From positions 224,001-288,000 of IMG/VR virus record IMGVR_UViG_3300011559_000001: DNA of 64,000 bases; one strand, 5' to 3'. How positions within the stretch are numbered: the stretch's first letter is position 1; each line of letters opens with the position of its first letter. Below, piece by piece: positions 2,446 to 55,515 of the stretch. Made by a program: the position numbers and the translations under genes. The notes under the pieces are model-generated. The model made no database searches. It saw nothing but the letters and a program-made list of their open reading frames with translations, and had not been told where the DNA came from. This DNA comes from a virus. Taxonomy: Duplodnaviria; Caudoviricetes.

Positions 2446-2483
2446 GGATTCGAAAGTTTTTCACAACTAGACTATACCCTTGA
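2446..2483 (+). promoter_or_regulatory. Phage early-type promoter motif upstream of chmA
   Basis: GGATTCGAAAGTTTTTCACAACTAGACTATACCCTTGA matches the repeated TTTCA-N3-NYATAC-YAY-N4-KYGA motif with one core mismatch. Confidence 0.6.
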
Positions 2484-2578
2484 CAACAGTAACGAGCAAT
2501 CGGAACTGGTGTTCGCGCGAACTACCCATACCGCAACAATCCGCTAGCAATCGAAGATCCATAGAAGAGGAATACACC

Positions 2579-4525
2579 ATGTCCGTTACCCGCGGCAGCG
2601 ACAACAACAGCAACAACAAGAACACCTCGCAGAACGAAGGCGGCAGCCACACCTTCGGCACCTCGTTCAACCAGACCGGTGGTGCGCAGACCGCCGGCAA
2701 CGCGCAGGCCTCCGGCGCCAACGGTCGCGTGACCTCCAGCCGTGGTGGCCTGGGCAAGCTGCTGGGCATGCGTTCGGGCGTGGGCCGTCGTCGTCCGGCG
2801 GCTGAACTGCAGAAGATGCAGGAAGCCTTCGTCGAAGAGTTCAAGGCCTACGAAGGCAGCCCGGTCCTGCCGGAAGCGCAGCCGCACCGCCTGATCATGG
2901 CCGACCGCGGCCGTCTGAACAAGAAGGTCGACGCCCTGATCGTCGCCCTGCCGGTCCAGCACGAAGGCGGCATCCACATGGTCATCCACACCCTGCTGGT
3001 CGAAGACGCCAACGACGTCTACGAAGCCAACCAGTGGCAGGTGGGCGGCAAGCAGTACCGCATCAGCACCGTGGTCGGTGACGTCTACGACGCCGCCTTC
3101 GCTTCGACCATCGTCGAAGTGGTGCGCGAGCAGACCGGCGTGAACTTCACCTCGTACGACGCCGGTCACCAGACCCTGCCGGCCGAGATGAACATCCTGG
3201 ACAAGGAAGCCATCCACAAGATCGCCTTCTTCGTCGCCGAAGCCCTGCTGCGTACGGCGCTGTCGCAGGTCATCAAGACCACCGCCGACGTCATCTCCCT
3301 GTCCGACCTGGGCGAGAACATCCAGACCACCGCGGCCATCGACTTCCGCAACGTCCAGAGCCAGACCGCCGCCGGCCTGCCCCTGCTGGGCGAGTTCGAC
3401 GTCAAGCTGCGCTACAGCGAAGGCACCACCTCCGGCAACACCGGCGGCGCCAAGGCCTTCGACCTGGGCAACCAGATCCCGCTGGGCGGCGCTGAAGGCT
3501 TCATCGACCTGTCGTACTCCGAGCCGCCGGCAGCTGGTTTCGGCCAGCAGCCGATCACCCAGCAGTACTACGCCAAGGCCGTGCTGACCCGCCTGGACAC
3601 CGACCAGGACGTCATCACCCCGGAACTGCAGATGCTGGCGCTGCTCGGCGCGACCCTGGTCGGCCGCAACATGAACTGGGCCCGCACCTGGTCGCCGTCC
3701 TTCCGTGGCCTGAACGCCGACCTGAACGACATCGGCGCGATCGGCTACGAGATCCCGGCTCCGGACGGCAACCCGATGGGCCGCATCGACACCACCTCGG
3801 CGCAGTTCGACGACGCCGCGCTGGCACGCCTGGTGATGACCTTCGTCCACGCACAGCCGCTGGTGGCCATCGACGTGGAAGAAGCTGGTGAGCTGTCCTG
3901 GCTGAACCGTACGCTGCTGGACGCAGCGGCCGGCAACGCCGATGCCGAGCAGGCCATCGTGACCGCGATGAACAACCTGACCGCGGGCAACTTCAGCCAG
4001 ATCTGGAACGGTGGCGAGATCGTCATCGACGACCAGAACCGCATCCACCTGGGCTACTACCAGGCCGATGACGGCGTCAACAGCCGCGTGGACCTGCGCG
4101 ACCTGCGTTACCTGTCGGTGCTGAACCGCTACGCGGACGTCGACCCGTCGATGATCGTGAAGTGGCAGGCCACCTTCGACGACGTCGGCGTGGATGCTGA
4201 CGTGCGCCTGGCCGAACGTGAAGACCTGATCCGCAAGATCCTGGGCCCGACCGTTCGCATCACCGGCTACGCTCGCCGCCTGACCTTCACCCCGGACTTC
4301 CTGGACAAGGCGCTGGAAGCTGCCGGCCAGGCCGGTCTGCGCATCCGTCCGGAGAACACCCTGATCGGCTTCGGCCACACCGCGGTTCGCGGTCGCGCCA
4401 ACATGGCCGACCTGACCTTCGGTGGTGGCGGCGGTCGCGCCGTGTTCAACTCGGGCGCCGGCGCTGCCGGTGGTCGTAACCTGAACCGTCCGTTCACCGG
4501 TCGCGGCAACACCTGGGGCCGCTAA
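2579..4525 (+). CDS. chmA: Chimallin, major phage nuclear shell protein (phiKZ gp54-like)
   Basis: 648 aa from ATG 2579 (GAGG RBS); strong codon bias; disordered N- and C-termini; LLGATLVGRNMNW..DIGAIGYE segment; immediately upstream of the nvRNAP NADFDGD subunit. Confidence 0.85.
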   Translation: MSVTRGSDNNSNNKNTSQNEGGSHTFGTSFNQTGGAQTAGNAQASGANGRVTSSRGGLGKLLGMRSGVGRRRPAAELQKMQEAFVEEFKAYEGSPVLPEAQPHRLIMADRGRLNKKVDALIVALPVQHEGGIHMVIHTLLVEDANDVYEANQWQVGGKQYRISTVVGDVYDAAFASTIVEVVREQTGVNFTSYDAGHQTLPAEMNILDKEAIHKIAFFVAEALLRTALSQVIKTTADVISLSDLGENIQTTAAIDFRNVQSQTAAGLPLLGEFDVKLRYSEGTTSGNTGGAKAFDLGNQIPLGGAEGFIDLSYSEPPAAGFGQQPITQQYYAKAVLTRLDTDQDVITPELQMLALLGATLVGRNMNWARTWSPSFRGLNADLNDIGAIGYEIPAPDGNPMGRIDTTSAQFDDAALARLVMTFVHAQPLVAIDVEEAGELSWLNRTLLDAAAGNADAEQAIVTAMNNLTAGNFSQIWNGGEIVIDDQNRIHLGYYQADDGVNSRVDLRDLRYLSVLNRYADVDPSMIVKWQATFDDVGVDADVRLAEREDLIRKILGPTVRITGYARRLTFTPDFLDKALEAAGQAGLRIRPENTLIGFGHTAVRGRANMADLTFGGGGGRAVFNSGAGAAGGRNLNRPFTGRGNTWGR

Positions 4526-29178: not shown

Positions 29179-30498
29179 ATGAAAAATGTGCCATTGCCGA
29201 GGGTCTCACTTGAAGCCATTTCCTACCAAGGAAAGTCGTTGCTGTATTTCGACTTGGTGGCTTTGGTGGACAACCTCAGGCTTCAGCCCGATCTGAGCCA
29301 GCGTTCGCTGGACGGTTCGGGCCTGTCTGCAATCATCAAGAAGCGTACCAAGATGAACGTCATCGTCCGACTGCAGTCGGACGGCCAGGATGATGGGTAC
29401 TTCTACGCCGAACCGCCCCTGTTGGATGCGGGCAATCCCTTCTACGAGTTGATCTCCAAAATCAGCTCGGCAGATGAACGCTCCCATGCCATCGACCGCT
29501 ACCAGCGCGCTGTGCGGTTGGCCAAGGAAAGCACCGGTTGGGTGGATCTGAAGCTGGGGCAAGTCGGCGGTCTGTTGGCCACGCTGCCCTGCTACCTCTA
29601 CCTGTCGCGTGATCTGATCTACGACCGCAACTACAGCTCCGAAGAGCTGGCGGCAATGATCCTGCACGAGCTGGGTCACATCTACTCCTTCTTCGAGACC
29701 TTGTGGTACACCTCGGTCAGCAACATGGTGATCTCCACGGCGGTGGATGCCATGAAGACCGAAGCTGATACCACGGTCCGGATCAAGCTGGTCTCCCAAG
29801 CACTGGGTGCCTTTGGTACGGTCGATCCGGAAGCGGCCAGTCTGATTGGCGGTGCAGCTGATGAAACCAGTCAGCGCGTGCTGTTCCTGAAGACCTTCGA
29901 AGAAGGCGAGCGTCAGCGCGTCAAGCAACTGGTCGATCGCGACGATACCTACAACGTGCGCTCGATTGAGTTCATGGCCGATCAGTTCGCCGTGCGTCAC
30001 GGTGCTACGCTGGCCCTGGCCAATGCACAGCACAAGATGGCCATGCGTACCCGCTCCGGTTACGGTATCAACCACAGTAGCTTCCTGGCCGCCCAGGCGG
30101 TCCGCTACGCCCTGTTGGCCGGCGTAAGCTACGTTGTCCCGCCCTTGGGCTTGGTGATCGGTGTGGTGGCCTCTCTGCTCCAAGCAGCGCAGGTAGCCAA
30201 CGACGACGTCAACCCGGACCCGATCGAACGCCTGACGCGTTTGAAGGGCGATCTGGTACAGCTGCTCAAGAACACCCGCCTGTCCCCGCAGATGCGCAAG
30301 CAGATCCTGCAGGACATCGAAGCGTTGGACGCCCTGCGTACCACGATGAAAGAAAACGGCGGCCTGTTCCGATTCATCTGGCGCAACGTGGCTCCGGCCG
30401 GTCGCAGGCGCTCGACGCTGCGCGAAATGCAGAAGGGGTTGGAAGACCTCATCAACAACGACCTTTTCACCCAAGCAGCGCGCATCCGCTCGTTGTAA
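29179..30498 (+). CDS. Virion/head protein with M48-like zinc metalloprotease motif and hydrophobic segment
   Basis: N-terminal VSLE site; ILHELGH ... EFMADQFA ... PDPIERL; hydrophobic stretch LLAGVSYVVPPLGLVIGVVASLL. Confidence 0.7.
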   Translation: MKNVPLPRVSLEAISYQGKSLLYFDLVALVDNLRLQPDLSQRSLDGSGLSAIIKKRTKMNVIVRLQSDGQDDGYFYAEPPLLDAGNPFYELISKISSADERSHAIDRYQRAVRLAKESTGWVDLKLGQVGGLLATLPCYLYLSRDLIYDRNYSSEELAAMILHELGHIYSFFETLWYTSVSNMVISTAVDAMKTEADTTVRIKLVSQALGAFGTVDPEAASLIGGAADETSQRVLFLKTFEEGERQRVKQLVDRDDTYNVRSIEFMADQFAVRHGATLALANAQHKMAMRTRSGYGINHSSFLAAQAVRYALLAGVSYVVPPLGLVIGVVASLLQAAQVANDDVNPDPIERLTRLKGDLVQLLKNTRLSPQMRKQILQDIEALDALRTTMKENGGLFRFIWRNVAPAGRRRSTLREMQKGLEDLINNDLFTQAARIRSL

Positions 30499-45159: not shown

Positions 45160-46347
45160 ATGGTCGGTACAGTAGCCGCGAAGTCGATGGTCGTCGGCGC
45201 CCTAGGGGCGGTGGCGTCGATCGCCAAGACCCTCGCAACTTCCCAGAAGAACGATTCGTTGGTGCAGTTCACCAGCGTCCTGCGCGTCGAGCCGGTCACC
45301 ATGATCGACAAGCGCCTGGAACGCGTGGACTACCTGCCCGACATCCTCCAGACGCTGCTCAGCATGTTCTGCGGTTTCTACATGCAGGCGGTGTCGTGTC
45401 TGGTCAAGGTGGGTGACATCAATGTCATCCGCATGCTCGACACCCTCAACCCCAGCCGTGATGGTACGCTGGCCGCCGGCTCGTTGATCGATGCGATCAA
45501 TGGCAAGGGCTCGGTCGGTATGCTGTCGATGGAGTCCTATCAGCACGGCGCGCTGCCGCGCCCGAACCAAGCCAGCTTGGAAGCGATCAACCTCGGCAAG
45601 GCGCAGGCCTTCTTGAGCGACTCCGATACCTTCGCCAAGCGCACTGACATCCAGTACAAGCTCGATGCCAAGACTGGCGATGCCTCCAAGAACTTCAAGG
45701 CCGCCAGCGAGGCGGTGAACCTGGCAGTGGGCAAGATGCTCGACGTCACCGTCGAGTCCAATGGCAACCGTGGTTCGTTCCCGGTGGCCGTACGTCTGGC
45801 CACGGCCATCGTCGACCATGAAGTCCTGCTTCATATTCTTGGCTCTTCCGGCCAGGACAATAGCCTGCGTGAGCGCTGGCACCGCTGGAAATCCGGCGAC
45901 CTGCAGCTGTGGCGCGACCTGATCTGGTGTCAGGATCTGATCGACAACGAGAAGCGCCTGCTCAACAAGGACAAGACCGGCGCCCTGGCCGAGCTCAGCC
46001 GCCGTCGGGCGATGAACTCCACCGCCGCTGTCCTGTCGGGCACGCCGTCGATCGCTTCGGCCTCGGCACTGGCGGTGATCTCCAAGGAGACTGCCACCGA
46101 TCTGGAACGTCAGAACCTCGGTAAGTTCACCGACCTGAAGTTCCGCAACAAGATCATGCAGGAATCGATGTCCATGATTCTGGTCGTGGTCGACACCGAT
46201 TACGAGAGCATCACGATTTATACCCGCGACATCCAGCTGCCGTCCAAGTTCGCCATCCGTGAACTGAAGGCGGCCAACAAGGGCACGGGTCCGGATCTGA
46301 ACGAGCTGCTCAAGATGTACAAAGCCGGCCAGTCGCCGTCCTTCTGA
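45160..46347 (+). CDS. Head/inner-body protein (phiKZ gp89-like)
   Basis: SLVQFTSVLRVEP, NLAVGK, ERWHRWKSG motifs; SME/SLE sites; AAGGA RBS. Confidence 0.7.
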   Translation: MVGTVAAKSMVVGALGAVASIAKTLATSQKNDSLVQFTSVLRVEPVTMIDKRLERVDYLPDILQTLLSMFCGFYMQAVSCLVKVGDINVIRMLDTLNPSRDGTLAAGSLIDAINGKGSVGMLSMESYQHGALPRPNQASLEAINLGKAQAFLSDSDTFAKRTDIQYKLDAKTGDASKNFKAASEAVNLAVGKMLDVTVESNGNRGSFPVAVRLATAIVDHEVLLHILGSSGQDNSLRERWHRWKSGDLQLWRDLIWCQDLIDNEKRLLNKDKTGALAELSRRRAMNSTAAVLSGTPSIASASALAVISKETATDLERQNLGKFTDLKFRNKIMQESMSMILVVVDTDYESITIYTRDIQLPSKFAIRELKAANKGTGPDLNELLKMYKAGQSPSF

Positions 46348-46368
46348 TTTACGGAGCCAAGACCCAAC

Positions 46369-47268
46369 ATGAACATCAAGTCCTTCCTGTCCTCGCTGGT
46401 TCCGCATTTCGAGCGCAACCGGATCATCGAGGACATCGACAGTCTGGCATCGGACGTCGAATCCAACCTTGCCCCCAGCTACAACGCTGCTGGCAAGCTC
46501 ATCGCTTCGCGCAAGTTCGGCTCCACTGCCGGCAAGACCATGGAAGCGATGTTCCGTCATCGTTTCCGCAACGAGCGTGCCCTGAACCACATCGCCTTCA
46601 TCGCCGGCCTGCTCCCGCAGTTGCTGGAGTCGCTCAAGCTGATCGAGCGCATGGTGCCGGAGCTGTTCGGTCGTGACGTCACCAAGGACTCGCTGACCTA
46701 CAAGAAGGCAGCGGTCCTGCAGTACCTGGCGGTGGTGCGCTTCTTCAACGACTACGCCGGCCGTCACCTGCTGCGTGTGCTCGCCGGTGAAGACGCCGCG
46801 ACCAAGGGTCAGCCGGAAGACACCGACCTGTTGCCGATCGACAAGAAGTTCTTCCAGGAGAACCTGGAGACCTTCCTGCAGGCACTGAACGTGCTGGCGC
46901 TGTCGCCGGACCAGATCGCTGAACGCCTGGGTCAGATGCAGGACATCCAGATCGTGGCCGACAAGATCGGCATGATCTCCTCGACGATGGGCGTTGAAAA
47001 CGTCGACCCGCTGAAGCTGGGCTTCATGGGTCCGTCGGCCTCGTCCAGCCCGATCTACAAGATCCGCTCGGCCATCGCCACCTACCAGGTGGCCAACCAC
47101 CAGCGCAACAAGGAACTGTCCAAGACGCTGCAACTGCGTCTGTTCGCGCTGAAGGACGCCTACGCCGGCCGCAGTGATCCCAAGCTGCAGGAACAGATCG
47201 AGTACAACACCGCTCGTCTGGCTCGCCTGCAGGAAGACATGGCCGCCTTCGAAGAGCGTTACGGCTAA
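46369..47268 (+). CDS. Head/inner-body protein (phiKZ gp90-like)
   Basis: GGAG RBS; VDPLKLGF..PIY, C-terminal coiled coil; synteny. Confidence 0.7.
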   Translation: MNIKSFLSSLVPHFERNRIIEDIDSLASDVESNLAPSYNAAGKLIASRKFGSTAGKTMEAMFRHRFRNERALNHIAFIAGLLPQLLESLKLIERMVPELFGRDVTKDSLTYKKAAVLQYLAVVRFFNDYAGRHLLRVLAGEDAATKGQPEDTDLLPIDKKFFQENLETFLQALNVLALSPDQIAERLGQMQDIQIVADKIGMISSTMGVENVDPLKLGFMGPSASSSPIYKIRSAIATYQVANHQRNKELSKTLQLRLFALKDAYAGRSDPKLQEQIEYNTARLARLQEDMAAFEERYG

Positions 47269-47289
47269 GCCGCAACCGAGGAGATTCAG

Positions 47290-47799
47290 ATGAACAGTAC
47301 GATCATCGTCTACCCTCGCCTGTACACCTCTCGCCTTTTCGAAGGCGAGGGGGTACTGGTTTCTGAAGGTGACCAGAGCATCGAACTGCTGTTCCGGACG
47401 TTGGTGGATCGTACCACCAATACCCGGTCCTGGCCGTTCTACGAATCGGTCCTGACCAATGCGTTGCGCCTGTTTGGCGATCTCAACGACTGGTTCAAGG
47501 AACAACTGTCGAACCCGAACCTGATCGGCTACAACCGTCAGTTCATCCACGACACCATCAACTTCATCGAGGGCGGTCAGCGCGAGCTGCCGGTCCGGAC
47601 GTGGTATGACCTCGTCAGTGAAGGCGGTGCGGGCCACCACGCCCATGCCATCCCGCAGCGTCTGCAGGACAACAAGCTGCTCCTCCGCGCTTCCGAACCT
47701 TCGCTGGAACTCATGCAAAAGTGGGTCAGCCAGCCTAATGGTTTGGAGGACCTGCTCAACACGATGCACCTGCTGTTTGGCAGGGCCCGCAACACCTAA
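47290..47799 (+). CDS. Virion-associated protein (phiKZ gp91-like)
   Basis: GAGGAG RBS; IVYPR..WVSQPNGLEDL; synteny. Confidence 0.6.
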   Translation: MNSTIIVYPRLYTSRLFEGEGVLVSEGDQSIELLFRTLVDRTTNTRSWPFYESVLTNALRLFGDLNDWFKEQLSNPNLIGYNRQFIHDTINFIEGGQRELPVRTWYDLVSEGGAGHHAHAIPQRLQDNKLLLRASEPSLELMQKWVSQPNGLEDLLNTMHLLFGRARNT

Positions 47800-47823
47800 C
47801 TTTTCCCCTGGAGTCTCAGCACC

Positions 47824-50800
47824 ATGAAGAATTCCCGTATCGCTGCGCAGCTGCGTAGCTTGACGCTCGCACCGTCGCTGGAGAGCGATGACACTGCCAG
47901 CACCACCGAGACCGGCCCGGGCAGCGAAGGCGTGGTCAAGACCGACGTCGACACCGACGCCGAGTCCCCCAACCAGACCACCGACGAAACCACCCCGGCC
48001 GAAGGCAAAGACCTGAGCGTCACCACTTCCGAAGTGGGCGAGCGTTCGGACCTGGAATCGGCCCAGACCCAGATCAAGCCGGGTGAAGGTGAGCCGACCG
48101 AAGTGTCGCTGGAAGCCTTCAGCACTGCCACCAAGGCCAAGATCCGTCGCTTCTTCGGCGGCGCGCTGTACACCGGCAAGCTGTACGAAAAGGTCGAGAA
48201 GATCGACGAGCAGATCCGTGCACTCGAAGAGCAGATCGCGGCCGTGGAGAAGACCAAGTCGGTCTCCAACGAAGGTCTGGAAGGCGCCAAGTGGGAAGGT
48301 GTCAAGGCCGACATGAAGGCCTCGTGGGGCTTCATGCCCGACCCGGATCGCCCCGGCAAGACCAAGTGGCGTTTCACCGGCAGTCCGATGAAGCTGGCCG
48401 CGGCCAAGGCCGAACAGCTGGAAGAGCTGGAGAACAAGAAGGCAAAGCTGGAAGAAAAGCTGCAGGCCCTGCTGGTTGCCAACAAGGGCAAGGTCTCCAC
48501 CGAATCGGTCGTGGACCCGGACGAAATTCCGGACAACTCCAAGAACGTCGACGCCGACCGCGAGACCGGTCCGGGTGGCGAAGGTGTGGTCAAGCAGACC
48601 CTGGACACTCACGGCGAATCGCCGAACCAGACCACCGAAGAAACCACGCCGGCCGAGAACAAGGACCTGACCACCAAGACCGTCGAAGTCGGCGAGCGCG
48701 GTGAGCTGGAAAGCGCCGAAACCAATTCGGACAAGGACGGCGAGAACGTCGTCGTGTCGAGCGAGTCGCTGGTCGCTGCCGGCATCATCGGCCTGGCCGC
48801 TGGCTTCTCCACCTGGGCCGCCGGCAAGTTCGTGAAGGAGGTCGATTCGATCGCCGACCTGCAGAAGCGCATCAAGCAGGCCAAGGAAGACACCAAGAAG
48901 GCCGAACAGGAATTCGTCGATCGCGCCAAGGCTGTCGCCGCCGCCGCCAAGGCCAAGTCGCCGACCGTCTCGCAGGAAGCGGACAACGAGAAGGCCTCGC
49001 TGGGCCAGCAGCTGCGCGGTGCCGCCAGCGCCACGATCACCTCCGGTATCGGCGTGGTCGGCGGTTTCGCTCTGGGTGGTCCGATCGGTGCCGCTATCGG
49101 TGGTCTGATCATGGCCGGCGCCTGGACGATGGACATGAAGCGCGCTGCCAAGATCTGCCGCGACAAGCGCGCCGAACTGCTGGCCTTGGAACTGAAGCTG
49201 GCCGACCGTCAGCTGGAACTGGCCACCCGCGTGGCTGCTGCTGAGAAGCAGTACAAGGTTTCCAACGAAAGCCTGGACGAGTTCGAAGCCCTGTCGGTGT
49301 CGACCGAATCCTTCAAGTCGGTGATCAAGTTCATCGTCAGCAAGGAGCGCCGCCTGGAGTGGTCGCTGGAGCAGTCGCCGAAGTGGAACGCCGAGATCGA
49401 CGCCGACATCGCTGATGTCCGTGAACGCATCGCCGCGGCCAAGAAGGCCGACAACCCGGCCAAGGTCCGCAAGCTGGAAGAAGAGCTGGCTTGGTACATC
49501 GAGCTGAAGGACGATGCGGCCGCCACCGACAAGGAGTTCCGTGAGGAACTGGCCCGTATCCGCGCCAAGAAGGCTGCCGCCCAGAAGGTCGTGTCCACCG
49601 AAGCGTTCGACGACGCCGCCGCTGCTGCCGCCGCTGCTTTCGCCGAAGGCGCTGCTGGTGCCGCTGAAGCCGCTGCTGCCGCCACCGGCGGTGACGCTGG
49701 CGAAGTGACCGAGCACGTGACCGAAGTCGCCGAAACCGTTGCCGAAACCGTGGCTGCCGATGTTGCCGAAGACGCTGGCGCTGACGCCGGTGCTGAAGCA
49801 GGCGAAGCCGCTGCCGAAGGCGACGTGGAAGACGTCTCCGATGACGAGCTGGCCGCCGGCGAAGCCGAGCTGAACGAACTGGACGGCTCGATCGAAGAGG
49901 CCGAAGGTCACGCCGAAGAGTACGAGCAGGCTGCTGCCACCATGGAATCGCTGATCGACGCGCTGCGTTCGGCCCAGCTGTCCGGTGGTCTGACCCCGCA
50001 GTCGGCGCAGTTCGCTACGATCACCTTCGAGTCGGTCGGTATCCGTCTGACCGGTGCTCCGTTCCAGAACGCCCACGGCGAATCGGCCATGCCGTCGCTG
50101 GAATCGTTCGGCGGCACGATGCGTCGTGACCAGGCCACCTCGATCTCCCTGGAGAACGCTGGCCAGTGGTTCGCCAAGATCTGGGAAGTGCTGAAGAACA
50201 CCTGGGCGCAGATCAGCGCTTGGATTGCCAACTTCATCAAGGTCCTGTTCTCGCAGGGCGAGCGCTACAAGCAGCGCGCACTGAAGATCCAGCAGCTGTC
50301 CAAGGGCAACCTGCCGCAGCCGAAGAACCGCACGGTCAAGGCCGGCGCCGCTGGTGCCAAGATCGCGGTCGGCGACAAGCTGGACGTGAACAACATGTCC
50401 CTGCTGCTGAACTTCGCCACCGCCGTCAAGGGTACGATGAACAGCACTGAGGACGGCGAAGCCAACCTGGTCGCCTACGTCAACTCCTTCGACCAGGCCA
50501 AGATCGACGGCTACAAGAACGCGCAGGCCGGCGAACCGACCTTCGGTGCGATGGGTCCGTTCAAGAACCCGCAGGATGTGGATGGCAAGTCCGGTTTCGC
50601 TACCGACGTGATGCCGGGCAACTACCGCCTGGTCATCGTGCCGTCCGAGGCCAACGCTGTGGTCGCCAAGATCGCCAGCGTCCTGGGTCGCAACGCCGGT
50701 CCGACGCGGGTCATCAAGCGCGTGCAGGAAGAGGGTGGTGCCGGTGAAGATGCCACCATGAACCTGTGGTTGGGCCCGCAGATCGGTTCGGTCTGCACCC

Positions 50801-51246
50801 ACGTGATCAAGACCCTGGACATCGTGGCTCAGATGCGTCCGGTCTGGGAAAAGGCAGCTTCGCTGAAGCTGACCCACAGCGGCAGTGCTGATTTCTCCGA
50901 AGAGGACCAGGCGGTCGTCAAGGAAATCATCAACGCCACCCAGCGTCGTTCCCGCGAAGAAGCCGCCGCCATCAAGGCGATCGGTCAGGCACTGGTCGCC
51001 ACCAGCGGTCACTACCTGGACGTTTGCGCAGTGCACCTGAAGGAGTACGGCGTGAACGTGGGTCTGGCTGACAAGGCTGTCGCCGGTGTCAAGGATGCGG
51101 CCGCCAAGGCCGGTGAAGCCACCAGCAACGCTGCTGGCGCTGCCAAGGACGCTGCTGGCAAGGCTGCCGGCGCCGTGAAGGATGCTGCGGGTAACGCCGC
51201 TGCCGCCGTCAAGGGCGCTGTCAGCAAGCCGGCAACGGCTGCCTAA
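47824..51246 (+). CDS. Large head/ejection protein (phiKZ gp93-97-like family) with many S-x-E processing sites
   Basis: 1140 aa; eight V-S-x-E plus PSLE/ISLE sites; family-type propeptide and C-terminal domain. Confidence 0.8.
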   Translation: MKNSRIAAQLRSLTLAPSLESDDTASTTETGPGSEGVVKTDVDTDAESPNQTTDETTPAEGKDLSVTTSEVGERSDLESAQTQIKPGEGEPTEVSLEAFSTATKAKIRRFFGGALYTGKLYEKVEKIDEQIRALEEQIAAVEKTKSVSNEGLEGAKWEGVKADMKASWGFMPDPDRPGKTKWRFTGSPMKLAAAKAEQLEELENKKAKLEEKLQALLVANKGKVSTESVVDPDEIPDNSKNVDADRETGPGGEGVVKQTLDTHGESPNQTTEETTPAENKDLTTKTVEVGERGELESAETNSDKDGENVVVSSESLVAAGIIGLAAGFSTWAAGKFVKEVDSIADLQKRIKQAKEDTKKAEQEFVDRAKAVAAAAKAKSPTVSQEADNEKASLGQQLRGAASATITSGIGVVGGFALGGPIGAAIGGLIMAGAWTMDMKRAAKICRDKRAELLALELKLADRQLELATRVAAAEKQYKVSNESLDEFEALSVSTESFKSVIKFIVSKERRLEWSLEQSPKWNAEIDADIADVRERIAAAKKADNPAKVRKLEEELAWYIELKDDAAATDKEFREELARIRAKKAAAQKVVSTEAFDDAAAAAAAAFAEGAAGAAEAAAAATGGDAGEVTEHVTEVAETVAETVAADVAEDAGADAGAEAGEAAAEGDVEDVSDDELAAGEAELNELDGSIEEAEGHAEEYEQAAATMESLIDALRSAQLSGGLTPQSAQFATITFESVGIRLTGAPFQNAHGESAMPSLESFGGTMRRDQATSISLENAGQWFAKIWEVLKNTWAQISAWIANFIKVLFSQGERYKQRALKIQQLSKGNLPQPKNRTVKAGAAGAKIAVGDKLDVNNMSLLLNFATAVKGTMNSTEDGEANLVAYVNSFDQAKIDGYKNAQAGEPTFGAMGPFKNPQDVDGKSGFATDVMPGNYRLVIVPSEANAVVAKIASVLGRNAGPTRVIKRVQEEGGAGEDATMNLWLGPQIGSVCTHVIKTLDIVAQMRPVWEKAASLKLTHSGSADFSEEDQAVVKEIINATQRRSREEAAAIKAIGQALVATSGHYLDVCAVHLKEYGVNVGLADKAVAGVKDAAAKAGEATSNAAGAAKDAAGKAAGAVKDAAGNAAAAVKGAVSKPATAA
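47908..48717 (+). repeat. Internal 52-aa duplication (47908-48063 and 48562-48717)
   Basis: ETGPGSEGVVK..ESPNQTTDETTPAEGKDL..EVGERSDLESA vs ETGPGGEGVVK..ESPNQTTEETTPAENKDL..EVGERGELESA. Confidence 0.9.
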
Positions 51247-51261
51247 GCGATCCAAGTAACA

Positions 51262-51368: not shown

Positions 51369-51833
51369 ATGAAAAACAATCTTCGCTCCCATTTCACCCA
51401 GAACACCAGCTTGGAGTCGTTCGACGACGAAAGCGCGGTGCTCGGTCACACCGATGCGGTTGCCAGTGCCTATGCTGAAGAGCAGGTCCTGGATGGCCGT
51501 GATCGTGAGCTGCTGGAAGATCAGCTCAAGGCTGCCGAAGCCGACCACGAAACCCTGGCCAATCTGGCTTCGGCCGTGGAAGGTGAACGTGACGTCGGTC
51601 TGGAAGCCGGCTCGGCGGGCTTCATGCAGCTGACCCTGGCTTCGATCCAGAAGCGCCACGGCATCGATGAGAACGTCCAGACCCATGCGGCCATGCCGTC
51701 GCTGGAGTGCTTCGACGGTCGTATGGCCCGTGTGGCCACCTCGCTGTCGCTGGAATCGGTCCGCAACACCCAGGCCATCGTCAAGCAGACGGTGGACACC
51801 CTGCGGGCGCGTCTGGCTACCGAGACCAACTGA
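51369..51833 (+). CDS. Short head-protein paralog (propeptide-like region only)
   Basis: TSLES, AMPSLECF, SLSLES; homologous to the propeptide part of 47824..51246. Confidence 0.7.
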   Translation: MKNNLRSHFTQNTSLESFDDESAVLGHTDAVASAYAEEQVLDGRDRELLEDQLKAAEADHETLANLASAVEGERDVGLEAGSAGFMQLTLASIQKRHGIDENVQTHAAMPSLECFDGRMARVATSLSLESVRNTQAIVKQTVDTLRARLATETN

Positions 51834-51834
51834 C

Positions 51835-53268
51835 ATGAAGCGCCTGGGCTTTGCAATCATGGCAGCGCACAACAACGCTGCAACGCGCGTCAGTTTCGAA
51901 TCCCATGTGGATGAACTGAACGACCTGAACGTGTCGCTGGAAGCACAGCTGCAGGAGATCGATGATCTCACTCAGCTGGCCTCGGGCTTGGAAGGTGTGG
52001 TGACCTCGTTTGAGTCCATCGACCGTCCGACCTACCAGCACCACCTCAATGCACGCTCGCAGGCCCTGTCCCTGCTGCGTATGTCCGGCCTGTCGGCCAG
52101 TGAAAGCCGTCAGCTGGTTCCGTCGATGGAAGCCGGCGAAGCGTCCTCGGGCTGGCAGAAGTTCAAGGCCTTCCTGCTGAAGCTGTGGGAGATGGTCAAG
52201 GTTGCTGCCAAGAAGGTCTACGCCTTCATCGACAACATCCTCAAGTCCTCCACCGTGGCTGAGAAGGCTGCCATCCTCAAGCTGCGCGTCCTGCGTCAGA
52301 AGCTGGCGGCACGTTCGGGCAGTATGTCCGTCAAGGCCACCGTCCCGCTGCGTTCGGCCCACGGCTATATCGTCGGCAGTACTTTCAAGGGCCAGGATCT
52401 GACGCTGATGATCCCCCAGAGTGTCGAGGACGTCAACGCCACTGTTGCTGAATGGAAGAAGGGACGGAGCATCATCCAGACCAAGCTGCCGGCCACCCTC
52501 AAGCAGGTGAGCAAGGATCTGAAGGCTGCCATCGATGGACTGGCCCTGACCGGTACGGACGAAGAAGTCAGCACCTCGATCATCAACAGTCGCGATGTCA
52601 TCCACGATGCCATCGACCCGATGTTCGGCGGCTACCTGAAGACCCATCTGGGTCTGGGTGTTCCGGGTGCGTTTGACATGTACCCGCTGGTCTACGATCG
52701 TGTCCTGAAATTCCATGGCGTCAGTGATGCCTCGGAAGGTCGCGAGTACGACAACCTCAGCGCCGCTGACCGCGAAGCCCTGCTCTCCGAGTATGGCGTG
52801 TCGGTGGAGCAGATTGACCTGGAAGACATCGCCAAAGAAGGCGTGTCCATCAGCGCCGCCTCCACCCGCGACATCGACAGCCTGCTCAAGTCGGCACAGC
52901 TGTTGCTGGATGAAGGCTACTCCTCCGACCAGAGCCGGTCCTGGAATTCCCTCAAGCGCAACCTGGACTTCTACGGCGCTGCCGTGGAAGGCGTACTGAA
53001 GGCTGTGCTCAAGCGCGAGAACCTGGACCAAGATGCCCGCAACCTGATCACCTTCGCACTGCATGCCCGTCGTGCCTTGCTGAAGTGGGCCTCTGCTCCG
53101 TACGCCCAGATCAACACCCTCAATGTTCGCGTGGTCGAATCCCTGCTGGCGCTGTGCTCTGACTTCATCACCAACTTGGACGAATCCGAGGTGGAGAAGC
53201 GTGAGCGCGACGTGGCTGAGAAGAAGACCAAGAAGGACGACAAGGACAAGTCCGGTAAGGACAAGTAA
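51835..53268 (+). CDS. Head/ejection protein paralog (gp93-97-like)
   Basis: VSFES, VSLEA, PSMEA followed by amphipathic helix WQKFKAFLLKLWEMVK. Confidence 0.75.
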   Translation: MKRLGFAIMAAHNNAATRVSFESHVDELNDLNVSLEAQLQEIDDLTQLASGLEGVVTSFESIDRPTYQHHLNARSQALSLLRMSGLSASESRQLVPSMEAGEASSGWQKFKAFLLKLWEMVKVAAKKVYAFIDNILKSSTVAEKAAILKLRVLRQKLAARSGSMSVKATVPLRSAHGYIVGSTFKGQDLTLMIPQSVEDVNATVAEWKKGRSIIQTKLPATLKQVSKDLKAAIDGLALTGTDEEVSTSIINSRDVIHDAIDPMFGGYLKTHLGLGVPGAFDMYPLVYDRVLKFHGVSDASEGREYDNLSAADREALLSEYGVSVEQIDLEDIAKEGVSISAASTRDIDSLLKSAQLLLDEGYSSDQSRSWNSLKRNLDFYGAAVEGVLKAVLKRENLDQDARNLITFALHARRALLKWASAPYAQINTLNVRVVESLLALCSDFITNLDESEVEKRERDVAEKKTKKDDKDKSGKDK

Positions 53269-53367: not shown

Positions 53368-55515
53368 ATGTCCAACATTGCCAATGCTCTGCGTCGACTT
53401 GCCTCTGGACGGCATGTCAGCCTGGAGAATGATGTCGATCCGGCCGTCCAGGGCCAGGAAGACAACCTCGATGAAAACGAACTGAAGGGCGTGGCCGAGA
53501 AGGCCGCCGCTTCGGTGGATGGTGAAGAAGGTGCTGATGCCGGCGCTACCGGCGATACTGCCGGTGCCGATGACATCGGTGGTGACGTGCCGGGCGGCGA
53601 AGACGCCGCTGCTGGTGACGGTACCGATGCTCCTGCTGACGCCGGCGTCGACGCAGGTGCTGCTCCCGATGCCGTCGCTGCACCGCCGGCTGATGCCGCC
53701 CCGCCCGAACCGGGCGCTGACGAAATCCAGACCCCGGCCGAAGCCGAGTTCGAGGAAACCACCGGTGAGCAGACCGACACCGATCCGACCGATCCCAATG
53801 CCGACCCGCTCGACCCCGCCGGCGAAATCCCCGGCGGCGAAGACACTGGCGATGCTGGCCAGTCCACCGAAACCGCTGAAGCCGGCGAAGCTGCCGCTGC
53901 TGACGCAGGTGCTGACATCGGCGGTGAGATCCCCGGCGGTGAAGTGCCGGGCGCCGACGCTGCGGTGACCGATGCCCCGGCCGCTGCTGCTCCGACTCCC
54001 GAAGCTGCCGCTACTCCGGAAGCCGCCGCCCCGACCGACGTGGTTCCCCCGCCGGAAGGCAGTGCCGCTGCTGCTGATGCTCAGCCGGCCGAAGCGCCGG
54101 CCGCGACCCCCGAGTCGATCGAGAAGTCCGACGCGGTGCGCGAAGTGGTCGAGCTGACCGAAGCTGCTGCCAGTGCTGCCTCGGCTGAAGAAGTCCTTCA
54201 GCAGGCCCGTGGTGTGCAGGACGGTCTGACCGAACTGGCTGACACTGCCGATGCCATCAACGAATCCGGCGGCGTGGACATGCAGTCCTTCGCCGTGCTG
54301 ACCCTGGCGGCCAAGGCCTTCACCAGCCAGCTGGATCGCCCCGAGCTGAAGTTCGGCGTGACCATGGAACAGCTGGCCGGTGGCAAGCGTGCCAAGGTGT
54401 CGCTGGAAGCCATCGAAGAGCTGGTCGGTGAAATGCAGCTGATCGATCCGGACCTGGAGCGTGAAGCCCTGAACGAGCTGGACCGCATGGTCTGCGCGAT
54501 CAAGGACTCCCTGCCGGCTGCGCGCGATCGCGTGCGTGCCGTGGTGGCTCGCTCCAAGGCCAAGACTGCCGAGAACACCGGACAGATCGACCTGGATCCG
54601 AACCTGGCTGCGGCCCTGACCATCGACGGCCAGATGCCCGAAGACCTCTCCGACGGCCTGTTCAACTACATCGAACTGGGCAAGTCGCTGATCAACAGCT
54701 ACAGCCCGGCTGCCTTCCGTGCCGCCACCGAAGCGTCCCTGCTGACCAACTCCGTCGAGTTCAACTCGGTGGAAGGTTTCTGGGAGAAGGTCGGTCAGCG
54801 CGTGGACGCCGTCAAGGATCCGCGTCACCTGATCCCGGCCTCGCTCCTGCAGACCTGTCTGCCGGGCGGTTCGGCCCTGTTCAGCGAAATGGCCGGTGGT
54901 GCCGAAGCTTCCAACCCGGTGGCCACCAAGCTGTACGAGTACGCCGACGGCCTGGTGCCGCTGGAAGCTACCGTGGCCGTGCGTGCGCAGGAAGGTGCTG
55001 GTGCTTCGTCCTACGCAGCGCTGGGCAACTCCAAGATCACCTCGATCGGTACGGGCTTCCTGGACGTACTGGACATGGAGAAGATCAACGACCTGCTCGA
55101 GCAGGGCTCCAAGTTGTGGCCGGACGCCAAGGGCGCTATCCGTCACCTGCGTGAAGTCCTGGACGGCGCGCCGGAAGAGATCACCAGCGTGGCTGGTGGT
55201 GAGTTCCCGCAGCTGGTGAAGTACATGGAAGTCAACTACTCGTTGGCGACCTGGCCGCTGTTGGTCTACCTGACCAACATGGTCTTCACTGCCAACGCGT
55301 TCGTGCTGCTGTCCGAGCTGTCCCTGAAGGCCGTGGAGACCACTCCGGAGCCGGTGGCTGCTGTGGAACCGACCGTGGATGCTGCCGTGGCTGAACCGAC
55401 CCCGGTGGAAGGTACCGATCCGCTGGAGACCGAACTGCCGCCGGAACCGGTGACCACCGATGAACCGGCTGCTGATGCGGCTGTGGTCGACGACGCCGAA
55501 CTGCCTCCGGCCTAA
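53368..55515 (+). CDS. Head/ejection protein paralog with long acidic Ala/Pro/Gly region
   Basis: VSLEN, VTMEQ, VSLEA; (D/E)(I/V)PGGE repeats. Confidence 0.75.
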   Translation: MSNIANALRRLASGRHVSLENDVDPAVQGQEDNLDENELKGVAEKAAASVDGEEGADAGATGDTAGADDIGGDVPGGEDAAAGDGTDAPADAGVDAGAAPDAVAAPPADAAPPEPGADEIQTPAEAEFEETTGEQTDTDPTDPNADPLDPAGEIPGGEDTGDAGQSTETAEAGEAAAADAGADIGGEIPGGEVPGADAAVTDAPAAAAPTPEAAATPEAAAPTDVVPPPEGSAAAADAQPAEAPAATPESIEKSDAVREVVELTEAAASAASAEEVLQQARGVQDGLTELADTADAINESGGVDMQSFAVLTLAAKAFTSQLDRPELKFGVTMEQLAGGKRAKVSLEAIEELVGEMQLIDPDLEREALNELDRMVCAIKDSLPAARDRVRAVVARSKAKTAENTGQIDLDPNLAAALTIDGQMPEDLSDGLFNYIELGKSLINSYSPAAFRAATEASLLTNSVEFNSVEGFWEKVGQRVDAVKDPRHLIPASLLQTCLPGGSALFSEMAGGAEASNPVATKLYEYADGLVPLEATVAVRAQEGAGASSYAALGNSKITSIGTGFLDVLDMEKINDLLEQGSKLWPDAKGAIRHLREVLDGAPEEITSVAGGEFPQLVKYMEVNYSLATWPLLVYLTNMVFTANAFVLLSELSLKAVETTPEPVAAVEPTVDAAVAEPTPVEGTDPLETELPPEPVTTDEPAADAAVVDDAELPPA

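Follow-up and report, generated by a model that had tools for sequence, protein, structure and literature searches.

Why should a bacteriophage make an internal head protein in which one short motif recurs again and again through the N-terminal part of the polypeptide? The question is raised by a single gene (Table 1) in the window, as we call the whole 64,000-nucleotide stretch analysed here, which comprises positions 224,001 to 288,000 of the 310,882-bp virus record IMGVR_UViG_3300011559_000001 (G000). The gene is one stop-free open reading frame (ORF) of 1140 codons, with GGAG 11 nt 5' of its ATG, and its translation is a precursor of 1140 amino acids (aa) and about 120 kDa that carries nine copies of V-S-x-E (VSxE). 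A preliminary description, made from the sequence alone, saw in it a polyprotein from which a set of small membrane-active cargo peptides would be released inside the capsid. We favor a different answer, with a probability of roughly 0.6, in which the first 777 residues (82 kDa, 68% of the precursor) form a modular, protease-processed propeptide that would serve in targeting and as scaffold-like core material for an ejection protein of the phiKZ type.

By sequence comparison, the precursor is a phiKZ-type internal head (ejection) protein, as the preliminary description had proposed. The Pfam family PF12699 (phiKZ-like phage internal head proteins) matches residues 680-1068 with an E value of 4.9e-33 and a score of 115.3 bits, against a gathering cut-off of 27, and the match covers model positions 3-385 of 387; a search within the phage's own genome gave 119 bits. 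Residues 680-777 already lie within the start of the model, a point that had been overlooked. The genomic setting is equally typical of the family. Homologues of phiKZ gp87, gp88, gp89, gp90 and the vertex protein gp91 precede the precursor gene and a second PF12699 gene lies downstream, in an order that matches the phiKZ head genes gp87-gp97 and is also kept in five relatives.

The nearest cultured relatives are the Xanthomonas phages RTH11 and LucasX. A homologue of chimallin, the nuclear shell protein, is encoded in the window (E 4.5e-31 to phiKZ gp54), and the phage is therefore nucleus-forming. PF12699 proteins (the phiKZ and Goslar homologues) are abundant in virions, are injected and have been seen at the early phage infection (EPI) vesicle, and their role has been called a key unsolved question; these reports bear out the premise, from which the preliminary description had set out, that such head proteins are injected. 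PHROGs assigned no family to the 1140-aa precursor, and a megablast search of its gene against phage records found no match. A 2017-aa ORF on the opposite strand (window 45202-51255, minus strand) was rejected as a high-GC artefact that spans four plus-strand genes with family matches; a simple gene caller was deceived by it, as other callers could be.

The VSxE motif and the prohead protease

All nine VSxE copies (VSLE at window position 48103, VSNE at 48262, VSTE at 48493, VSSE at 48754, VSQE at 48967, VSNE at 49258, VSTE at 49297, VSKE at 49336 and VSTE at 49591) lie where the preliminary description placed them, and every one falls within the first 593 residues. Shuffling the protein 20,000 times gave a mean of 0.52, and no shuffle reached nine. 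The motif density in the precursor is 7.9 per 1000 aa, about 20 times the 0.36 per 1000 aa found over the whole genome's crude gene set, a genome-wide rate that is approximate because the crude gene caller took the antisense ORF in place of the precursor gene. The precursor shows no enrichment of the looser phiKZ motif, [S/A/G]-x-E (36 observed versus 36.3 expected), and so the signal is specific to Val at P4 and Ser at P3. The related motifs PSLE (50092) and ISLE (50143) were also found as described, and the arithmetic of the module lengths (53, 77, 87, 71, 97, 13, 98 and 167 aa, plus a C-terminal part of 363 aa) is correct. A further conserved PSLE, at residues 17-20, had escaped the first reading.

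Do these motifs behave as protease sites? The preliminary description had proposed comparing the number and order of modules among relatives, and in such a comparison the sites are conserved and the set of modules is variable, with gain and loss occurring at the sites. All 23 orthologues, which are 31-75% identical in full-length alignment, carry several VSxE motifs, nearly all of them in the N-terminal part, and together they hold 100 copies against about 12 expected (109 against about 13 with this phage's own protein, P0001). The 109 sites in these 24 proteins yield an extended logo, [T/K/V]-V-S-[Q/T/N]-E↓[S/G/A]-hydrophobic, where ↓ marks the predicted cut; 104 of them have Ser, Gly or Ala at P1', 70 have a hydrophobic residue (L/F/I/V) at P2', and P5 is mostly Thr, Lys or Val. 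The P1 glutamates E20, E482, E760 and E777 are invariant in the 24 proteins, with conservation of 90% or more at E227 and E314. When the unit formed by modules C and D (Table 1) is aligned among 12 orthologues down to 25-30% identity, 8 of the 13 invariant columns belong to the three site columns.

The sites also mark the points at which the protein has been rearranged. Insertions and deletions between close orthologues start and end at them: the 130-residue insert at residues 98-227 (modules x1 and x2) is flanked by VSLE and VSTE and is found in this phage only, P0004 and P0005 having another insert at that place, while residues 483-593, which include module E, are missing from P0005 and P0006, with a break no more than a few residues away from the sites on either side. 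No similarity can be detected among modules x1, x2, C, D, E and F, and yet the motif ends each of them. An AlphaFold model of the whole protein places 8 of the 12 P1 glutamates in linkers and another 3 close to a helix end, a few residues away at most. The only one buried in a helix, and a confidently predicted helix, is that of VSKE-508, which the preliminary description had left out of its cuts and which also has Arg at P1'; going by the model, this site is probably not cut.

A suitable protease is encoded elsewhere in the genome. A search with the phiKZ gp175 sequence found a homologue (41% identity, E 1.8e-42) at G000:188461-189102, also given as 188491-189294, outside the window; the T4 protease model PF03420 has no match in the genome, and the protease was detected only via the gp175 sequence. 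The homologue itself carries VSME↓S and VSLE↓S at residues 236-247/267, which from their sequence are probably self-cleavage sites, and the SPN3US protease is reported to remove a propeptide from its own C-terminal end. Moreover, a leader 10-35 residues long, with [V/P/I]-S-[L/F/T]-E↓[S/A/G/N] at its end, is found at the start of at least 11 genes of the genome, which provides a ready list of predicted protease-processed head proteins; three of these genes are in Table 1 and others lie outside the window. The P3 residue of leader and propeptide sites varies by clade, with [V/I]-A-x-E in Psa21 (L017) and FLC9 (L018) and V-S-x-E here, a pattern that suggests co-evolution of protease and substrate.

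The view that the VSxE motifs are conserved prohead-protease sites, already put forward in the preliminary description, is thus well supported by inference from their conservation, the extended logo and the presence of the protease gene.

Parts of the propeptide and their conservation

The predicted sites divide the precursor into the parts listed in Table 1. Modules A1 and A2 arose by an internal duplication that had not been noticed before. Modules C and D are slightly basic (isoelectric point, pI, 9.3-9.4), like the mature domain, whereas the other large modules are very acidic. Long helices are predicted in the propeptide modules, with predicted local distance difference test (pLDDT) scores of 75-93 in the AlphaFold models. 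Further [S/A/G]-x-E motifs lie inside the modules and may also be cut.

Table 1. Parts of the precursor and other genes mentioned in the text, with their positions in the window
Feature	Position	Strand	Description
Whole gene	47824..51246	+	1140-aa precursor of PF12699 internal head / ejection protein; Pfam match, conserved gene order
Leader, 20 aa, MKNSRIAAQLRSLTLAPSLE	47824..47883	+	basic; first predicted cut site PSLE-20; resembles capsid-targeting sequence
Module A1, residues 21-97	47884..48114	+	acidic, net charge -16; predicted disordered (pLDDT <35); ends VSLE-97
Modules x1 and x2, residues 98-150 and 151-227	48115..48504	+	basic, helical; end VSNE-150 and VSTE-227
Module A2, residues 228-314	48505..48765	+	A1 paralogue (58% identical); acidic, disordered; ends VSSE-314
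Module C, residues 315-385	48766..48978	+	Gly/Ala-rich hydrophobic head (315-334), then charged helix; ends VSQE-385
Module D, residues 386-482	48979..49269	+	glycine-zipper-like segment (408-434), then charged helix; ends VSNE-482
Two 13-aa spacers, residues 483-495 and 496-508	49270..49347	+	end VSTE-495 and VSKE-508
Module E, residues 509-593	49348..49602	+	helical hairpin (pLDDT 85-93); ends VSTE-593
Module F, residues 594-760	49603..50154, including the 17-aa spacer	+	very acidic (net charge -36), Ala/Glu-rich; conserved helical end; PSLE-760
17-aa spacer, residues 761-777	after module F	+	ends ISLE-777, likely maturation site
Predicted mature domain, residues 778-1140	50155..51243	+	37.8 kDa, pI 9.3, fast-evolving
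Chimallin homologue	2480-4525	+	nuclear shell protein
Leader-bearing gene	29179-30498	+	predicted protease-processed
154-aa gene	51369-51833	+	propeptide-like; candidate core or scaffold protein
Second PF12699 gene	51835-53268	+	leader-bearing; predicted protease-processed
Leader-bearing gene	53368-55515	+	predicted protease-processed

Is this long N-terminal region simply filler? Comparison with three relatives indicates otherwise. The ratio of nonsynonymous to synonymous substitution rates (dN/dS) is 0.25-0.41 for the propeptide (69-87% identity) versus 0.49-0.68 for the mature domain (51-54% identity), and the core of the mature domain (residues 841-1080) gives 0.51-0.77 (44-53% identity). 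The propeptide is thus under purifying selection and evolves more slowly than the domain that is retained, which argues that it is not filler and that the propeptide, not the mature domain, is the place to seek a conserved assembly function. Modules A2, C and D reach dN/dS values of 0.10-0.22 against the two nearest relatives, and the structural neighbors gp88-gp91 give 0.09-0.31. When the A2-C-D block (window 48505-49269) is compared with one of the relatives (L009:6001-9036), dS is only about 0.2, versus 0.4-0.8 for the rest of the gene and the neighboring genes, and this local deficit suggests a recent recombination of the propeptide block between phages.

Modules C and D form a conserved two-module unit in which each site is followed by a Gly/Ala-rich hydrophobic head and then by a charged helix of about 45 residues. 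Both hydrophobic strings quoted in the preliminary description are present, and its picture of several modules as a hydrophobic head followed by a long helix agrees with the alignment and the AlphaFold models, although the model of the C+D unit has a mean pLDDT of 58.8, with the heads below 50. The head directly follows the site in module C of all 12 aligned orthologues and in module D of the shorter ones. A profile of the unit found 13 proteins among 1.84 billion cluster representatives, most of them internal protein (IP)-like precursors of 700-1100 aa and none of them a stand-alone small peptide gene; as far as sequence goes, the unit is confined to this clade and is found only as part of such precursors. 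In another head-type protein with a similar leader, P0029 (836 aa), a hydrophobic module resembling C and D follows ISLE-764 at the C-terminus, so that either end of a precursor can carry such a module.

What the propeptide may do

How would so elaborate a propeptide be used? In the reading that we prefer, it would consist of the 20-residue leader, acidic disordered modules and basic helical modules, two of them with a Gly/Ala-rich hydrophobic head, each part ending in the putative site [T/K/V]-V-S-x-E↓[S/G/A] of the phage's gp175/T4-gp21-type protease. The leader and propeptide would carry the protein into the prohead core, and the propeptide would provide much of the helical, self-associating, scaffold-like core mass needed by giant phages, in which no counterpart of the T4 scaffold protein gp22 is known. 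Once the shell closes, the protease would cut about 11 sites, giving pieces of 1.4-16 kDa. Most of these pieces, the acidic ones first, would leave or be displaced as DNA enters, while the basic 38-kDa PF12699 domain would remain and be ejected with the genome. Cleavage itself, the part played as core or scaffold and what becomes of the pieces we only infer; neither the precursor nor its modules have sequence similarity to any scaffold family in Pfam or PHROGs.

The adjacent 154-aa gene (Table 1) has a propeptide-like layout with no cargo domain: a leader, MKNNLRSHFTQNTSLE, stands before Ser and is followed by a helical part, the PSLE..SLSLE junction of the family, and then only about 25 residues to the stop codon. 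It is kept as 149-151 aa in three relatives (dN/dS 0.34-0.46), and LucasX has LUCX_110 (132 aa) at the same position. The gene is a candidate for a dedicated core or scaffold protein.

Several considerations weigh against the core reading. The cleavages are predictions from sequence. A disposable scaffold would have no obvious need for hydrophobic heads exactly at the new N-termini, nor for dN/dS values of about 0.1-0.2 in the modules that bear them, and the recombination in A2-C-D inflates the apparent conservation for the one pair concerned. Finally, some propeptide peptides are still detected in SPN3US virions, and T4 heads retain some processed core-protein fragments, so that clearance may be incomplete.

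Could the pieces then be cargo, as the preliminary description held? According to this alternative, which we think doubtful, the cut pieces, above all the two hydrophobic-head modules, stay in the capsid, are ejected, and act on the inner membrane or the EPI vesicle. With the head placed directly after the site, cleavage would indeed expose a free hydrophobic N-terminus with a long helix behind it, a layout reminiscent of protease-activated class I viral fusion peptides. Like the domain that stays, modules C and D are mildly basic, and comparison with the two nearest relatives gives them a dN/dS of 0.12-0.22. Injected PF12699 proteins co-localize with the EPI vesicle, the phage is of the kind that uses one, and some fragments do persist in SPN3US virions and T4 heads. 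There are also weak Pfam similarities to C19orf12 (E 8.6e-4), microcin V (E 0.06) and SLATT_6 (E 0.15).

All of these Pfam matches, however, are below threshold (C19orf12, 19.6 bits against 30; MccV, 14.3 against 27; SLATT_6, 12 against 27.1); a Pfam scan of the single modules with E values up to 10 returned only coiled-coil and glycine-zipper noise, again sub-threshold throughout, and a protein atlas feature search with residues 311-482 gave no usable match. The heads reach a KD19 of 1.75, barely above the 1.6 rule, and their approximate translocon-scale sums are +2.4 and +3.9 kcal/mol. The hydrophobicity of the modules is thus marginal, short of a clear transmembrane segment, and their sequences place them in no membrane family.

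Their distribution also speaks against a role for the modules at the membrane. The hydrophobic segment is missing in 9 of the 24 orthologues, including that of the cultured phage RTH11; this result uses only counts and hydrophobic flags, because module labels propagated by BLAST leaked "F" through Ala/Glu-rich low complexity. In the other cultured relative, LucasX, gp109 has one hydrophobic module, which follows VSQE-191. In phiKZ, where the EPI vesicle was described, gp89-gp97 have no hydrophobic segment (maximum KD19 at most 1.3), and the cluster proteins examined from Psa21, Xoo-sp14 and FLC9 have no hydrophobic module in the N-terminal (propeptide) part, the sole KD19 peak of at least 1.6 in that set lying near the C-terminus of one FLC9 protein. 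Such modules are therefore no general requirement. It should be added that the C-D profile finds the unit only within precursor-type proteins and never as a peptide gene of its own, and that the additional [S/A/G]-x-E motifs within the modules may be cut, leaving smaller fragments.

The preliminary description had also set its cargo peptides against a single disposable propeptide, and this contrast does not hold. In the reports on the phiKZ and SPN3US homologues, long propeptides are already described as cut at several sites, with most of their regions, apart from some exceptions, undetectable in mature particles, and the authors regard the extra cuts as a route for clearing the pieces from the capsid.

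A more specific version, a shade more doubtful than the general one, would have the basic hydrophobic-head modules stay with the DNA, be ejected and, around the incoming genome, insert into the inner membrane, fuse it or pinch it. If this were true, they would be the phage equivalent of viral fusion peptides primed by a protease and would offer the first molecular handle on EPI vesicle formation in this clade.

Perhaps, instead, the hydrophobic modules act before infection, as releasable tethers that hold the precursor or the prohead core at the inner membrane until the cuts free the prohead to move toward the phage nucleus. The capsids of nucleus-forming phages have been reported to assemble on the cell membrane, SPN3US protease action has been linked to the detachment of proheads from the inner membrane, and predicted cut sites do flank the hydrophobic segments. 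Against this, the Goslar study has capsid assembly cytoplasmic, the segments are preceded by some 314 residues, mostly acidic and disordered, which would be an unusual topology for insertion into a membrane, and the same marginal hydrophobicity and absence from many orthologues and from phiKZ that trouble the cargo proposal apply here as well; we consider a tether improbable.

The last possibility, that the recurring VSxE motifs are an uncut by-product of module duplication or composition, with the protein left whole or cut only at PSLE and ISLE, could appeal to the paralogy of A1 and A2, through which at least one site could be inherited, and to the lack of enrichment of the general [S/A/G]-x-E motif, but it is highly improbable, since the motif closes six mutually dissimilar modules (x1, x2, C, D, E and F), its columns do not vary where the neighboring ones fall to 25-30% identity, the P1' and P2' preferences go beyond the pattern searched for, and the motif both ends the leaders of unrelated head genes and occurs in the protease itself.

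Relation to known head proteins and membrane peptides

How does the precursor compare with systems in which head protein processing is better described? The phiKZ proteins gp92-gp97 and gp162 belong to the same PF12699 family and share its place in the cluster after gp91. In phiKZ, according to later papers, an N-terminal propeptide is removed by gp175 after S/A/G-x-E, and there is a short first site near residue 13-20, gp93 being cut at SLE-13. The PSLE↓SF-type junction before the mature domain is shared too, with PSLE↓SF and TSLE↓SF in gp89 and gp97. The phiKZ precursors, however, are 371-816 aa long, with fewer and less uniform sites and no hydrophobic segment, whereas here a 777-aa propeptide combines about 11 near-identical sites with a variable set of modules, two of which have a hydrophobic head.

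The SPN3US proteins gp53 and gp54, with the protease gp245, offer a parallel established by mass spectrometry: their long propeptides are cut several times, they have a conserved N-terminal leader, and the protease logo, A-x-E with a preference for Val at P4 and Ser at P1', is almost the same as the one found here. Differences lie in the length of the propeptides (124-137 aa), the number of proven cuts (about three), the P3 residue (Ala rather than Ser) and the hydrophobic modules, which are not reported for SPN3US.

The T4 core (gp22, gp67/gp68 and the internal proteins) is similar in its logic. Its helical core proteins are cut many times after x-x-E by the related protease gp21, most of the pieces leave while some processed fragments stay, and cargo is directed into the core by leaders of 10-20 aa. 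T4 encodes scaffold and cargo in separate genes, whereas here one polypeptide would hold both, and there is no sequence similarity between the two systems.

A more distant likeness is one of layout. Class I viral fusion proteins, which are activated by a protease, have a cut site, a Gly/Ala-rich hydrophobic N-terminus and a long helix in that order. Glycine-zipper membrane peptides such as microcin V resemble the modules in layout as well, with the sub-threshold Pfam similarity given above. There is no homology to either group and no Pfam match above threshold, and the setting is the inside of a capsid.

The general maturation scheme is already known, and the precursor extends it. What is new is the scale (about 11 uniform sites over 777 residues), the way in which modules are shuffled at those sites, a conservation pattern that runs inversely in propeptide and mature domain, and the hydrophobic-head modules. 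For the questions of what PF12699 proteins do and what serves as scaffold in giant nucleus-forming phages, this clade offers an extreme and legible case, since two thirds of the precursor consist of modules that can be exchanged and that share one uniform cut site. The code deduced for these sites, [T/K/V]-V-S-x-E↓[S/G/A], is clear and allows the processed head proteome of Xanthomonas-type jumbo phages to be predicted, and the clade-restricted hydrophobic-head modules provide a concrete and cheap test of whether the "waste" of head maturation has a second life in infection.

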